Source: Escherichia phage ECML-359
Sequence record: OL631482.1
Reading direction: 5' to 3' (one strand)
DNA: 64,000 nucleotides
Shown: in pieces, positions 25,853 through 40,329 of the stretch
Numbering within the stretch: the stretch's first letter is position 1
Layout of the letters: every line of letters starts with the position of its first letter
Program-made: the position numbers and the translations under genes
The notes under the pieces: generated by a model
Told to the model about the DNA's origin: nothing
The model's database searches: none
What the model saw: the letters and a program-made list of their open reading frames with translations, nothing else

Positions 25853-25877
25853 TTATTCTCTCCAAGTTGATGGGATA

Positions 25878-25906
25878 ATTATACACTATCCCATCATAAA
25901 GTAAAC
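25878..25906 (-). promoter_or_regulatory. early promoter (-35 GTTTAC, 17 bp, -10 TATAAT) inside palindrome
   Basis: Minus-strand reading GTTTACtttatgatgggatagtgTATAAT; -10 lies in loop of GATGGGATA/TATCCCATC inverted repeat. Confidence 0.55.
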
Positions 25907-26172: not shown

Positions 26173-26220
26173 TTTATATTCCATTGTTTGGTTGATAAAA
26201 TCATTATACAACCTTTTTAG

Positions 26221-26637
26221 TTAAGCGTACACAGCTTTCCCATAGTATTTGTACCAGGTAGGCTTTTGAGAAATTTTCTCATTCAGTCTGGCTTGACTGA
26301 TTTCAATTGACCAGATTGATGGTTGATAATCATTCTTCCATTCATCAGGAATATCATTTAAATCTTGTGTAGAAATATCTTTTATGTTAAACCCTCGCTT
26401 TAAACATTCCGCAATAAGTTCTTGATGCCGGTTTTTAAGGAACAAAAGCTTATCATAAAAGAAGGTGACATGACCAGTCCCTAAAAGAAAAGATGATGGG
26501 ATTTTAAAGTCAGACACCTTTTTACCATTTTGCACATGCTTACGAACAGCGCCAAAAACGCGAGGAAGTTCACGATATTCAGCCATAAGATGTTGGTCAG
26601 CGAGTTCAGATACCAGGGTTAAATTAATGCGAGTCAT
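26221..26637 (-). CDS. denV: endonuclease V (pyrimidine-dimer DNA glycosylase)
   Basis: 138 aa; [35 protein letters not shown]...[10 protein letters not shown] matches T4 DenV as recalled. Confidence 0.9.
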
Positions 26638-34572: not shown

Positions 34573-35004
34573 TTAAATTTCAAATTCTTTGCGGAAGTTG
34601 GAAGCATAAGACTGAACTGATGCTTTGTTGAATCCAAACTCACGCACAATCATATCAATAACAGCTCTGCGAGCAGCACCATTAGACATATTAACAGTTT
34701 TGAACATATCATAGCATAAATCTTTGTTGCTCATACCGGAGCGTTTAGGTGCCTTACGTTCAGCTTTAGGAGTAGGTTTAACTTCTGGTTTAACCTGTCC
34801 ATCATTCAGACCTTTAAAAATTTTACCTGCCAGAGTTGCCAGTTTAGCAGCTTCGCCACGAGTGATACCAAATACTGCCGGGTTAAATGAAATACCTTCA
34901 GCTGCCAGACGTTTGAAGAACATACGTGCTGCGGATTGTGCTTCAGCTTCAGAAGAGTTGTTTAATGCCAGCTTAACGTACTTAACCAGTTTTGAAGTTT
35001 TCAT
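34573..35004 (-). CDS. hypothetical protein, paralog of 35087..35512
   Basis: Shared C-terminal module NGAARRAVIDMIV...VQSYASNFRK. Confidence 0.55.
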   Translation of the reverse strand: MKTSKLVKYVKLALNNSSEAEAQSAARMFFKRLAAEGISFNPAVFGITRGEAAKLATLAGKIFKGLNDGQVKPEVKPTPKAERKAPKRSGMSNKDLCYDMFKTVNMSNGAARRAVIDMIVREFGFNKASVQSYASNFRKEFEI

Positions 35005-35086: not shown

Positions 35087-35512
35087 TTATTTTTGAGCTT
35101 TGCGGAAGTTGGAAGCATATGACTGAACAACAGTCTTTTTGATATCATGGGTGTTAACCAGAACATCAATCAGGGCGCGGCGAGCTGCACCATCTGCCAT
35201 ATCAATTTCTGCAAATGCCTGGAAGCAAATGTCACGAGCATTACCAGATTTGGACTGGATTTTTTCTTCTTTAACTTCTTCAATTGGGAATTCAATCATT
35301 TCAGCTTGGATTAATTCAATGATAGATTCTTTTGACTGTTTGGTGTTTACCTTCAGTTCAGAATTAAGGGACTTAGCGATGGCAACAATCTGGGTTGAAG
35401 TCAGATGAATAAGTGCATCTTCACGAATGCAGATTTCACATACTTCGTCGGCAACCATTTTGTTAGTGATGCGGGTAACAGAGAATGCAGAAGTCAGGGT
35501 CAGGAAGTTCAT
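35087..35512 (-). CDS. hypothetical protein, paralog of 34573..35004
   Basis: Start at MNFLTLT after cassette leader; C-terminal DGAARRALIDVLV...VQSYASNFRK. Confidence 0.55.
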   Translation of the reverse strand: MNFLTLTSAFSVTRITNKMVADEVCEICIREDALIHLTSTQIVAIAKSLNSELKVNTKQSKESIIELIQAEMIEFPIEEVKEEKIQSKSGNARDICFQAFAEIDMADGAARRALIDVLVNTHDIKKTVVQSYASNFRKAQK

Positions 35513-35618
35513 TTTATTTCTCCAAAGTTTTGTTTGATTCAGTGTGTAACTCAGTATGGAATCATTATGCATCCAGTCAATTCGGATGTACACTACTTTT
35601 TGAAGAAATATTAAAAAT

Positions 35619-36195: not shown

Positions 36196-36284
36196 ACGTT
36201 TCTCTTTAGTTGATTTATAAAAAAGCCCCAACCTTTCGGAAGGGGCTATACCTTGTCGGGGTTCCACCTGCAAGGCAAGTGTTC

Positions 36285-36668
36285 TTATCCGCGAGCGAAT
36301 GCCATTGCGGCGCGTTCGTTGGCACGGTCGGTGATGTTCAAGAATTTATCACGAGCGATTTCGATTGGAGCGCCAACCCAGTCAGCAGCACCATTACCTG
36401 GAGACTGTTTAGGGCGAACCATATAAGTTGAAACTTTAGAACCGGCCAGTTTGGCACCTGGTGCCGCGGCATTTTTAACGTCTTTAGCTTTGATGCCAAA
36501 CCCAGTTACGATACCCCAAGAAACACCATTAACTGGTTTCTTGAACATAACACGGTCACCAATTGAAACACCGGCTTTTTCTGGAGCCACTAAAGAAAAT
36601 TTACCAGCTTCAGTCAGTACGGATTCGGTGATGGTATTGCGATTTAAAAATTCTGCATATGTAAGCAT
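36285..36668 (-). CDS. putative virion internal protein with capsid-targeting-like N-terminus
   Basis: Starts MLTYAEFLNRNTITE, resembling MKTYQEFIxE; consensus late promoter 32 nt upstream. Confidence 0.55.
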   Translation of the reverse strand: MLTYAEFLNRNTITESVLTEAGKFSLVAPEKAGVSIGDRVMFKKPVNGVSWGIVTGFGIKAKDVKNAAAPGAKLAGSKVSTYMVRPKQSPGNGAADWVGAPIEIARDKFLNITDRANERAAMAFARG

Positions 36669-36699
36669 TTTGTTTTTCCATTATTAGGGTTGTTGTTAA

Positions 36700-36707
36700 T
36701 ATTTATA
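36700..36707 (-). promoter_or_regulatory. T4-type late promoter TATAAATA
   Basis: Exact TATAAATA on minus strand 32 nt upstream of ATG 36668. Confidence 0.5.
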
Positions 36708-36901
36708 TTCCATAGTACCGGATGCACCATCCGCTCGGATTTCTCATACTACCGGACGCACCGTCCGCTCTGGAAAAACTCCGTTAAAAGGGTGCGCCGT
36801 TTCAGCTGTGGTAGTAAAGAACCAGAACACAGTAAAACTGTGGGAGGAACTATACTTCAGGGAACGTCAGTCCGACGACTTACCGGTAGCGACCCGGTTT
36901 C

Positions 36902-37141
36902 TCATTCAATTGTAATAGCTAATTTGACTTTAACAACCTTATAATTGGAATCAAGGTCATTGAATTCCATAAAATTTGTTGCTAATCTGCGAGTCGGGAA
37001 ACTTAGATATTTATTATGCTCAGGTGGAGCAGTTAATGCAAACCATGGGACTTGTTTATCATTTTCATCAAACTCATCAAAGCTATAAACCAGCTCGTTG
37101 TTGGTTATATCCATAACTGCATATGATTCACTAATAACCAT
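36902..37141 (-). CDS. hypothetical acidic protein (about 80 aa)
   Basis: Start at internal Met (37141) with GAGGAT SD so it does not overlap tRNA-Arg. Confidence 0.45.
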   Translation of the reverse strand: MVISESYAVMDITNNELVYSFDEFDENDKQVPWFALTAPPEHNKYLSFPTRRLATNFMEFNDLDSNYKVVKVKLAITIE

Positions 37142-37233: not shown

Positions 37234-37235
37234 GG

Positions 37236-37309
37236 TGGCCCCATCCGGACTTGAACCGGAAACCTGCCAGTTATGAGCCGGATGCTCTAACCAATTGAGC
37301 TACAGGGCC
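37236..37309 (-). tRNA. tRNA with CAU anticodon (Met or Ile2)
   Basis: Hand-folded cloverleaf: D stem GCTC/GAGC, T stem TCCGG/CCGGA with TTCAAGT loop, anticodon loop CTCATAA; one anticodon-stem mismatch. Confidence 0.65.
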
Positions 37310-38751: not shown

Positions 38752-38779
38752 TTTATTCTCCTCAGTAGTTGATGGGATA

Positions 38780-38808
38780 ATTATACGCTATCCCATTCAA
38801 AAGTACAC
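38780..38808 (-). promoter_or_regulatory. early promoter candidate (-35 GTGTAC, 17 bp, -10 TATAAT) inside palindrome
   Basis: Minus-strand reading GTGTACttttgaatgggatagcgTATAAT, then leader tatcccatcaactactgaggagaataaa. Confidence 0.45.
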
Positions 38809-39063
38809 TTATTTTTTAGGGATACGATAGTAACGCATCTCAACATCTTTCTGCTTGTGCCACTTTTTGATAAGGTCTTCAGAACCTTTAATGGTAACGA
38901 TGTCATAGCGACCATCATGCGATACTTCAGCACTTAACTGCATGAAGTTGTCTAGTGAACGGCGCAATTCCTCATTAGAAAAACTACCACGCGGGGAACC
39001 AACATAAGCAAACTCAACTTTTGCATCTGCGGCTTCGTTAATAAATTCTTGATAAGTTTTCAT
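38809..39063 (-). CDS. internal-protein-like virion protein with capsid-targeting N-terminus
   Basis: Starts MKTYQEFINEAA. Confidence 0.65.
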   Translation of the reverse strand: MKTYQEFINEAADAKVEFAYVGSPRGSFSNEELRRSLDNFMQLSAEVSHDGRYDIVTIKGSEDLIKKWHKQKDVEMRYYRIPKK

Positions 39064-39088
39064 GTTGTCTCCAGTAGTTGATGAGATA

Positions 39089-39118
39089 ATTATACTGCAG
39101 TTATCCCATCGCGTATAC
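39089..39118 (-). promoter_or_regulatory. early promoter candidate (-35 GTATAC, 18 bp, -10 TATAAT)
   Basis: Minus-strand reading GTATACgcgatgggataactgcagTATAAT, then leader tatctcatcaactactggagacaac. Confidence 0.45.
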
Positions 39119-39119
39119 T

Positions 39120-39362
39120 TTATTTTAAGTCTTCCAGACGTTTTTTCATCTTGGTGCCGTTCTTAGCAATCTCGCCTGCATCAGAACAAAGAGCAAGGAG
39201 AGCTTTAACTTTACCCTGGTCGCCTTTAAAAGATGATGCATCTACTGAATCAGCAAGTTCTTTGATACGTGCAAACAGGCGCTCTGCTTCAGCAAGGGCT
39301 TGACCAAGTTTAACTTCCATACCATGGGAAGATTCTGTTATAAATGTTTGATAAGTTTTCAT
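39120..39362 (-). CDS. internal-protein-like virion protein with capsid-targeting N-terminus
   Basis: Starts MKTYQTFITESS. Confidence 0.65.
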   Translation of the reverse strand: MKTYQTFITESSHGMEVKLGQALAEAERLFARIKELADSVDASSFKGDQGKVKALLALCSDAGEIAKNGTKMKKRLEDLK

Positions 39363-39407: not shown

Positions 39408-39707
39408 TTACATCTTACTACCACGAATTACGCCATAAGCAGCGAAGTCGTCAGTGATATTTTTAGGAGTGTTTTTACCCGTTTCAATGAAAGCGATGCT
39501 TGATTTCTGACTAAAAGAGGTAATTTTGTTATAGTTAGAGTCAAGGAAGGTATAACCATTTTTACGCAGCTGGTCAAAGTCTTCAGCGTCGCCTTTACCT
39601 TTGAAGTCAACCCATTTGTAGGTGTTTTTCTTCTGAAGGCCCAGAGGCCAGGTTTTTGCTTCTGCCAGGTAATTGTTTTCTACCAAAAATTCATGAAAAG
39701 TTTGCAT
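39408..39707 (-). CDS. internal-protein-like virion protein with capsid-targeting N-terminus
   Basis: Starts MQTFHEFLVEN; mature part paralogous to 25909..26172. Confidence 0.65.
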   Translation of the reverse strand: MQTFHEFLVENNYLAEAKTWPLGLQKKNTYKWVDFKGKGDAEDFDQLRKNGYTFLDSNYNKITSFSQKSSIAFIETGKNTPKNITDDFAAYGVIRGSKM

Positions 39708-39996: not shown

Positions 39997-40329
39997 TTAT
40001 TTATAAAGTTTTGCTAGTTCTTTACGTCCGCGAGCAGACATAATAAATTGTTCATCGCCAATTTTAAAATAAGCCATACCGCCGTCAACAGCGATACCAA
40101 TTTCTTTAGTACCTTCTTTGCCTTTCCACTTGCCACCAGATTTCAGGACAGCTTCAACTGCAGCTTTGGAATATTTGGACGTTTGAAAACGTTCATTACC
40201 AATCTGAAAGAAAACACCATCTGCATTTTTGGTTAAACCAAATTTCAGGGAGCCTTCACTATCATCAATTGATTTGGTCTCATTGATGGCGGATTCGGCT
40301 AAAAACTCGTTGTAAGTTTTGATGTTCAT
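39997..40329 (-). CDS. internal-protein-like virion protein with capsid-targeting-like N-terminus
   Basis: Starts MNIKTYNEFLAES; Gly/Lys-rich mature part. Confidence 0.55.
   Translation of the reverse strand: MNIKTYNEFLAESAINETKSIDDSEGSLKFGLTKNADGVFFQIGNERFQTSKYSKAAVEAVLKSGGKWKGKEGTKEIGIAVDGGMAYFKIGDEQFIMSARGRKELAKLYK

Follow-up and report, generated by a model that had tools for sequence, protein, structure and literature searches.

A probable internal head protein gene at the rnaC position of a T4-like phage

The 64,000 nucleotides (nt) of Escherichia phage ECML-359 analysed here (record OL631482.1; this whole stretch is hereafter the window) contain on the minus strand, at 36285..36668, an open reading frame (ORF) of 127 amino acids (aa) that probably encodes a packaged internal head protein of the internal protein (Ip) class, hitherto unrecognised, in a phage of the Gaprivervirus-type T4-like group. 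As far as can be read from the sequence, this protein would be transcribed late, dock on gp22, be cleaved by gp21, be retained in the head and be injected. The first-pass annotation of this DNA had proposed a late-expressed, capsid-targeted and packaged protein, and all the features of that reading that can be looked for in the letters (the leader, an early L/I-x-E site, a late promoter motif and a basic product) are present. The gene belongs to a 506-nt cassette that, by alignment, replaces the stable RNA gene rnaC of T4 exactly. The gene and the parts of its product are as follows, with an arrow marking a cut or candidate cut.

36285..36668, minus strand: coding sequence of 127 aa plus stop, an open frame with its ATG at 36668, beginning MLTYAEFLNRNTITE / MLTYAEFLNRNTITESVLTEAGK
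36645..36668, minus strand: capsid-targeting-like leader core MLTYAEFL, codons 1-8, found by motif scan and kept in the homologues P0002, P0003, P0004 and P0005
36609..36632, minus strand: ITESVLTE, codons 13-20, with the candidate gp21 sites ITE↓S (Glu15) and LTE↓A (Glu20) by the L/I-x-E rule
36288..36578, minus strand: conserved basic body, codons 31-127, tentatively an SH3/KOW-like beta-barrel followed by a C-terminal helix

The 127-aa ORF is a real protein-coding gene, and its product is under strong purifying selection. Among ten distinct alleles (the window's own and nine fetched from other carrier phages) there are 43 variable sites, of which 42 are synonymous changes at third codon positions and a single one is non-synonymous; a spurious ORF is thereby excluded, and the open, ATG-started frame of the first-pass annotation stands. 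Matches to the 801 nt around the ORF comprise 590 records of related T4-like phages, the closest being Gaprivervirus genomes (e.g., EAWsc9, VR20 and P479), and 15 of the 590 carry the ORF. The encoded protein is identical in 14 of these carriers and differs by one residue in the remaining one (99-100% identity), and the DNA identity of the best matches over the whole 801-nt region drops to 89%. In the carrier records that were opened, or whose feature labels were listed, the gene is called only "hypothetical protein" and never an Ip. Constraint extends to the 121 nt that separate the flank from the ATG, which have 7 variable sites as compared with 42 in the 127 third codon positions of the ORF. 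Scored with a standard list of E. coli optimal codons, the ORF reaches an optimal-codon fraction of 0.70 (median, 0.49) and stands fourth of 105 ORFs, among the ip genes, a codon bias that points to abundant expression. Glycine, alanine and lysine make up 34% of its residues, as expected of the Gly/Ala/Lys-rich body described at first, and the mature product is predicted to have 107-112 residues, a mass of 11.1-11.7 kDa and a pI of 10.1-10.3.

The N-terminus of the protein, which had been noticed at first as targeting-like, was examined by scanning every ATG of the window followed by at least 40 open codons (748 starts) for the pattern M.{0,3}[TS][YF].[ET]F[ILMF]. The motif occurs at 8 of these starts, namely those of seven ip-type genes (five of them at the ipI locus, the other two near 26 kb) and that of the 127-aa ORF. 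Three of the ip-type genes (38809-39063, 39120-39362 and 39408-39707) were scanned against PHROGs, and these match internal head or virion families. By this count the leader of the 127-aa ORF is not a chance resemblance, and to judge from the other genes that bear such a leader the phage uses the capsid-targeting sequence (CTS) system. By mutagenesis of T4 IPIII, the determinants of targeting were mapped to the aromatic residues at leader positions 4 and 7, and those of processing to positions 8 and 10 (PMC9026906). The residues for targeting are present in the 127-aa ORF as Tyr4 and Phe7, with Leu2 in place of Lys2. Cleavage by gp21 follows L/I-X-E (PMC9026906), and the only [LI]-x-E sites in the whole protein are ITE (residues 13-15) and LTE (residues 18-20), so that the early (I/L)xE site claimed in the first-pass annotation is matched by two sites, both close to the leader. 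These candidate sites align with ITE↓A of T4 IPI and with the ITE or LTE of the homologues described below, and by this analogy a cut could be made after Glu15 or Glu20.

The signals in front of the gene are consistent with late expression.

36700..36707, minus strand: T4-type late promoter motif TATAAATA, an exact match, invariant in 10 carriers
36677..36679, minus strand: weak Shine-Dalgarno sequence GGA, 8 nt before the ATG, read from the sequence

The first-pass annotation had placed the exact motif correctly and its distance at 32 nt upstream; between motif and ATG lie 31 nt. The number of TATAAATA sites is by itself not above chance (7 in 64 kb, as compared with 6.4 expected from shuffles), and the motif is informative because of its position before ORFs rather than because of this count. 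Five of the seven sites in the window are followed, after 18-31 nt, by the start of an ORF of at least 113 aa; one of these ORFs is the 127-aa ORF and the other four are head-closure, baseplate-wedge, head-tail adaptor and lysis-inhibition genes, and the spacing from motif to ATG at the 127-aa ORF agrees with that of the structural genes in the window. Over the motif plus 47 nt to the ATG, 2 sites vary among the 10 carriers. In T4 late promoters TATAAATA occupies positions -13 to -6 (PMC1524935), which therefore predicts a transcription start near 36694 and an AT-rich leader of 26 nt. Each of three distant homologues of the gene has GATAAATA or AATAAATA ([A/G]ATAAATA) 28-34 nt before its ATG, and AGGA or AGGG 7-11 nt ahead of the ATG. 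At position -13 of T4-like phage late promoters A or T is usual (PMC1524935), and the G found there in the homologue's contig L006 is a less typical variant.

Two further sites of this kind lie nearby. An exact TATAAATA at 39998-40005 on the minus strand precedes the ATG (39988) of an ip-type gene by only 9 nt, too close for it to be the promoter of that gene, and overlaps with the stop codon of the ip-type gene ahead. In addition, TATAAATC at 36214-36221 (minus strand) matches the late motif at 7 of 8 positions; it follows directly on the U run of the terminator behind the 127-aa ORF and precedes by 18 nt the ATG (36195) of a 184-aa membrane protein (phrog_2143), which is annotated as "holin" or "amidase-6" depending on the record.

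Distant relatives of the protein are few, and they keep the leader. A word-indexed search of 5.8 billion clusters returned nothing beyond one 98%-identical variant. An exhaustive HMMER pass over 1.84 billion representatives gave three hits, and a profile search added one more. P0002 is a fragment with 88% identity to the window protein and an identical leader. P0003 (202 aa, MYTFKEFLVE…ITE↓A) starts MYTFKEFLVESELDLITE↓AKK and has about 80 extra residues in its linker, P0004 (125 aa) starts MKSFKEFMLSE↓K, and P0005 (134 aa, MLTYNEFLEE…LTE↓A) starts MLTYNEFLEEKSGNNLTE↓A. In P0003, P0004 and P0005 the body has 38-41% identity to that of the window protein, and the linker between leader and body cannot be aligned; the leader and the early L/I-x-E site are kept in all three, and Tyr/Phe4 and Phe7 are invariant across the family. 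Because the leader is kept despite such divergence of bodies and linkers, it does not look like a relic of recombination. Body-only patterns, chosen to avoid saturation by ip leaders, found only identical copies in IMG/VR and in JGI metagenome contigs. The family is thus very rare: among more than 15 billion proteins, only about five distinct sequences belong to it.

The contigs of the three homologues (L006, L007 and L008) have T4-like gene content and partial synteny with the window. Transfer RNA (tRNA) genes lie upstream of the family member in L006 and L008, L006 has downstream of it a homologue of the window's 197-aa T4 e.6-like gene, L007 has downstream a homologue of the window's 143-aa gene, and L008 shares with the window the upstream sequence CCAGAGCGG(G/A)CGGTGC and the downstream terminator. 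An origin of the gene in host DNA was considered and rejected, since all the homologues that the protein libraries yielded have T4-like phage surroundings. Two paralogous genes adjacent to one another, at 34573-35004 and 35087-35572 on the minus strand (phrog_18416 and phrog_9997), have a C-terminal …VQSYASNFRK domain in common and hold the first and sixth ranks of the window in optimal-codon fraction; a homologue adjoins P0004 in L007 (1121-1564).

The body of the protein belongs to no family in Pfam, PHROGs or NCBIfam, and neither do the homologues (a sub-threshold NCBIfam match for P0003, with 19 bits against a cutoff of 701, was discounted). A sequence-profile search of the PDB gave only noise, with E values of 0.6 or worse. 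The AlphaFold model from the single sequence is unusable (pLDDT 36), and the model from the four-sequence alignment reaches pLDDT 60, with 69-78 in its best blocks, and can be used for the fold class only. It has a beta-hairpin at residues 39-59, further strands and a C-terminal helix at residues 115-126, and it was tentatively assigned to the SH3/KOW-like barrels, a class of generic binding scaffolds from which no specific function can be read. Apart from the VR20 copy of this same protein, Foldseek searches of BFVD and the PDB gave no significant match.

The position of the gene was defined by comparison with T4 and with related phages that carry it or lack it.

36285..36790, minus strand: whole cassette of 506 nt (two hairpins, late motif, ribosome-binding site and ORF), delimited by three-way alignment with the carrier VR20 and the non-carrier P479
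36791..36905, minus strand: rnaD-like stable RNA (homologue of T4 species 2 RNA), left flank outside the cassette, by blastn to T4
36219..36283, minus strand: conserved spacer and intrinsic terminator, right flank, by blastn to T4 (93-97%)

Read along the minus strand, the window has the ip-type cluster (40329-38809), trna.4-like and trna.3-like genes, tRNA-Met(CAT), tRNA-Arg(TCT), a 79-aa ORF and a non-coding stretch, which is followed by the 127-aa ORF, the terminator and the gene of the 184-aa membrane protein. The rnaD-like RNA matches T4 rnaD by blastn at 94% over its first 54 nt and 89% over its last 27 nt. The terminator (AGCCCC…GGGGCU plus a U run, 36247-36219) folds at -27.6 kcal/mol and is also found in P479. 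The gene lies between this terminator and the tRNA region, as first described, with tRNA-Arg and rnaD on its other side. In T4 the order of genes is tRNA-Arg, rnaD, rnaC, the spacer with the terminator, and e.8. A blastn search with T4 rnaC found no match anywhere in the window. In the Gaprivervirus P479, which lacks the ORF, exactly this slot is taken by an rnaC with 98.6% identity to that of T4 (compare L004, 3124-3262). Since the flanks match T4, rnaC is missing from the window and P479 keeps rnaC in this slot, the exact replacement of rnaC by the cassette follows from the alignments. The statement in the first-pass annotation that T4 carries no recognised equivalent here holds for proteins but not for the locus, where T4 has rnaC.

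Several other features of this region were recorded. The gene rnaC appears to be dispensable in 15 sequenced phages. The 79-aa ORF (36902-37141, minus strand, phrog_33509) is inserted between tRNA-Arg and the rnaD-like RNA, which adjoin in T4, and its stop codon shares bases with the beginning of the rnaD homologue. The tRNA with a CAT anticodon at 37234-37309 (minus strand) is tRNA-Met by ARAGORN and tRNA-Ile2 in the EAWsc9 record. An Rfam search of 34-40 kb gave, above the gathering score, two tRNAs only.

Between the rnaD-like RNA and the late promoter motif, the cassette contains two hairpins in tandem.

36750..36770, minus strand: hairpin 1, GAGCGGACGGTGCGTCCGGTA, stem CGGACG/CGTCCG, loop GUG, -9.3 kcal/mol
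36716..36736, minus strand: hairpin 2, GAGCGGATGGTGCATCCGGTA, tandem copy of hairpin 1, from which it differs by a compensated pair

The sequence GAGCGGAYGGTGCRTCCGGTA occurs twice in the window, in tandem, with 0 copies expected by chance. In VR20, TH40, MN01 and DK-13 an A-U pair of hairpin 1 is changed to G-C on both sides, and in TH40 hairpin 2 has a G-U wobble, which is tolerated in RNA read from the coding strand. This compensatory change and the wobble point to pairing at the RNA level on the coding strand. Taken as a unit, the 111-nt hairpin region folds no better than shuffled sequence (z = -1.2), and what is noteworthy in it is only the individual stems and their covariation. As the hairpins lie upstream of the predicted late start, they would be present only in read-through transcripts from the tRNA/rnaD region, and they may serve to stabilise the 3' ends of the upstream RNAs or as a site at which these RNAs are processed. 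They were rejected as an intrinsic terminator, as no U run follows them, and also as a sigma-70 promoter. A partial copy of the hairpin flank (CCAGAGCGGGCGGTGC) lies ahead of the homologous gene in L008. An IMG/VR scan for the hairpin-flank motif CCAGAGCGGRCGGTGC gave 25 hits, of which only VR20 was recognisably relevant and the others were judged, from the length of the pattern, to be chance. Elsewhere in the window, short stem-loops with TATAAT in or next to the loop (e.g., GGGATAGCGTATAATTATCCC) precede several ip-type and neighbouring genes, at 38760-38810, 39064-39119, 25853-25905 and 26185-26230 on the minus strand; they resemble the promoter/stem-loop cassettes of the hyperplastic regions of T4-type genomes. 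It is conceivable, though doubtful, that the unit of hairpins plus promoter described here is a late-gene counterpart of such mobile early promoter/stem-loop cassettes.

On the packaged-Ip reading, RNA polymerase with gp55 would start late in infection near 36694, and the AT-rich leader of 26 nt would be translated efficiently. The MLTYAEFL leader, with Tyr4 and Phe7, would then dock the precursor on the gp22 scaffolding core during prohead assembly, and the prohead protease gp21 would cut after ITE15 and/or LTE20, yielding a basic product of ~11 kDa and 107-112 residues that would remain in the head together with the DNA. The protein would reach the next host by injection with the DNA, and its likeliest job, by analogy with the class, would be to block a particular nuclease or defence protein of that host on entry. 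In T4, Ip1, Ip2 and Ip3 are injected inhibitors of distinct GmrSD type IV enzymes and have only the leader in common (PMC12373910), and IPI (Ip1) is an inhibitor of GmrSD of E. coli CT596. Because Ip1-3 share only the leader and each inhibits a different GmrSD enzyme, an anti-defence function is likely the better choice for a packaged Ip with a body of its own, and for the same reason the dissimilarity of this body to those of Ip1-3 is no argument against a similar function.

Several points weigh against this interpretation. In the literature searched, virion proteomics, transcript mapping and genetics were found neither for this gene nor for the phages that carry it (VR20, vB_YenM_P8 and others). 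No similarity of the body to a known Ip could be detected. Residue 10 is Arg instead of Glu, so that the canonical cut after residue 10 is absent, and the cut proposed after Glu15 or Glu20 is drawn by analogy from IPI, as the anti-restriction role is drawn purely from the class. The gene lies outside the two loci usual for ip genes, ~2.1 kb from the nearest of them (38809-39063), its Shine-Dalgarno sequence GGA is weak, and the structural model is of moderate confidence only (pLDDT 60).

The alternatives to be considered differ in how far they depart from this scheme. It is possible, though rather unlikely, that the protein is targeted and cleaved as outlined above and differs in function alone, acting inside the head, where it would neutralise the charge of the DNA or aid core assembly or packaging, as proposed for T4 IPIII, and having no anti-defence role. 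The basic nature of the mature product (pI about 10), the codon bias towards abundant expression, the aberrations in head assembly of IPIII mutants (PMC9026906) and the tentative SH3/KOW/Tudor-like barrel, a class that often binds nucleic acids, would all suit such a role. However, the gene occurs in 15 of 590 records and P479 lacks it, a patchiness typical of arms-race genes and not of assembly factors, and anti-restriction targets are now known for all three T4 Ips (PMC12373910).

A larger departure, which seems unlikely, is that the protein is made late and stays unpackaged in the cytoplasm (e.g., as a nucleic-acid-binding protein), its ip-like 5' end being left over from recombination by way of the conserved promoter and leader module of ip genes. 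The 5' modules of ip genes are thought to be substrates of recombination in T-even phages, in so far as Repoila et al. (1994) is relayed in PMC3012670 and PMC12373910, and both the lack of Glu10, which canonical processing needs, and the position outside the usual ip loci fit this idea. A relic leader should decay, yet this one is kept in four lineages with bodies 38-41% identical and linkers that cannot be aligned; it is identical in the 88%-identical P0002, its Tyr/Phe4 and Phe7 do not vary in the family, and L/I-x-E sites stand directly behind it. Moreover, T4 IPI also lacks Glu10, yet it is packaged (PMC3012670).

A more elaborate proposal, which is doubtful as it stands, takes the cassette as a third ip locus, in which rnaC was swapped for a self-contained late module (hairpins, promoter and CTS gene) and the injected basic SH3/KOW-like protein, unrelated to the known Ips, would disarm a defence other than GmrSD or compensate for the loss of rnaC. 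Finally, that the ORF is spurious and the insert, from the hairpins onward, an RNA element substituting for rnaC would agree with the exact replacement of rnaC and with the compensatory change and G-U wobble in the hairpins, but is effectively refuted by the 42 of 43 variable ORF sites that are synonymous third positions, by homologues recognisable as proteins at 38-41% identity, by the lack of Rfam matches in the region and by a hairpin region that folds no better than its shuffles.

A packaged Ip at this position is of interest for several reasons. It was found recently that the injected Ips of T-even phages are highly specific anti-restriction factors (PMC12373910), and most of the polymorphic Ips have no known target. 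The 127-aa gene would add to the Ip repertoire a new family of bodies that lies outside the Pfam, PHROG and NCBIfam models, and it would indicate that Ip genes can sit outside the two classical loci, where a scan for the leader motif finds them and locus-based annotation has not. That many polymorphic T-even Ips exist and can be recognised by their leader was already known; what would be new is an undescribed family in a third locus, where it has displaced a stable RNA gene. Because close Gapriverviruses hold either rnaC or the cassette at one and the same site, they provide a natural experiment, and this alternation offers a route to the host factor that is countered and to the cost of losing rnaC. 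The leader variant itself (Leu2, Arg10, cut at 15 or 20) bears on how much of the capsid-targeting sequence is needed, a requirement that matters for T4-based protein delivery.

With respect to known systems, the cassette occupies the same slot as T4 rnaC (species 1 stable RNA), between rnaD and the spacer and terminator that end the tRNA region, and the two have no sequence similarity, the cassette encoding a protein. The SH3-like small beta-barrels (KOW, Tudor, chromo and PWWP domains) are a tentative parallel to the modelled fold, and the 127-aa ORF has no Pfam or PDB sequence match. The closest parallel is T4 IPI. This protein begins MKTFKEFTSTTTPVSTITE↓ATL, also without Glu10, and its precursor of 95 aa gives rise to a mature form of 76 residues (PMC3012670), which places the cut after ITE19. 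IPI thus reads MKTFKEF…ITE↓A and the 127-aa ORF MLTYAEF…ITE↓S, with M-x-T-[FY]-x-E-F, a spacer without Glu10, I-T-E and a small residue in common; both proteins are small and basic, and the propeptide would have 15 or 20 residues in the 127-aa ORF as compared with 19 in IPI. Alignment of the two by hhalign covers only the first 44 columns, i.e., leader and linker, with 34% identity and 51% probability. The ribosome-binding regions are also alike (GGAAAATAAAAATG in T4 ipI and GGAAAAACAAAATG at the 127-aa ORF), whereas the two genes differ in place and promoter: the 127-aa ORF is found at the rnaC position, some 2 kb away from the ipI locus, with the exact late motif in front of it, and in front of T4 ipI there is a stem-loop with a sigma-70-like promoter.

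The comparison extends to the class as a whole. For T-even phages at least 10 polymorphic Ip genes, recognised by their leader, are reported in two loci (PMC12373910, as it cites Repoila 1994). No PHROG internal-protein family matches the 127-aa ORF. The canonical Ips have MKT[YF]xEF[ILF]xE with Glu10 and lie in the ipI or ipII-ipIII loci, whereas the 127-aa ORF has Leu2 and Arg10 and lies in a third locus. With IPII, IPIII and the polymorphic T-even Ips, including the seven in the window, it shares the N-terminal motif and the L/I-x-E rule, and like the other members of the class it combines a mature part unrelated to theirs with high optimal-codon usage and a patchy, accessory distribution.

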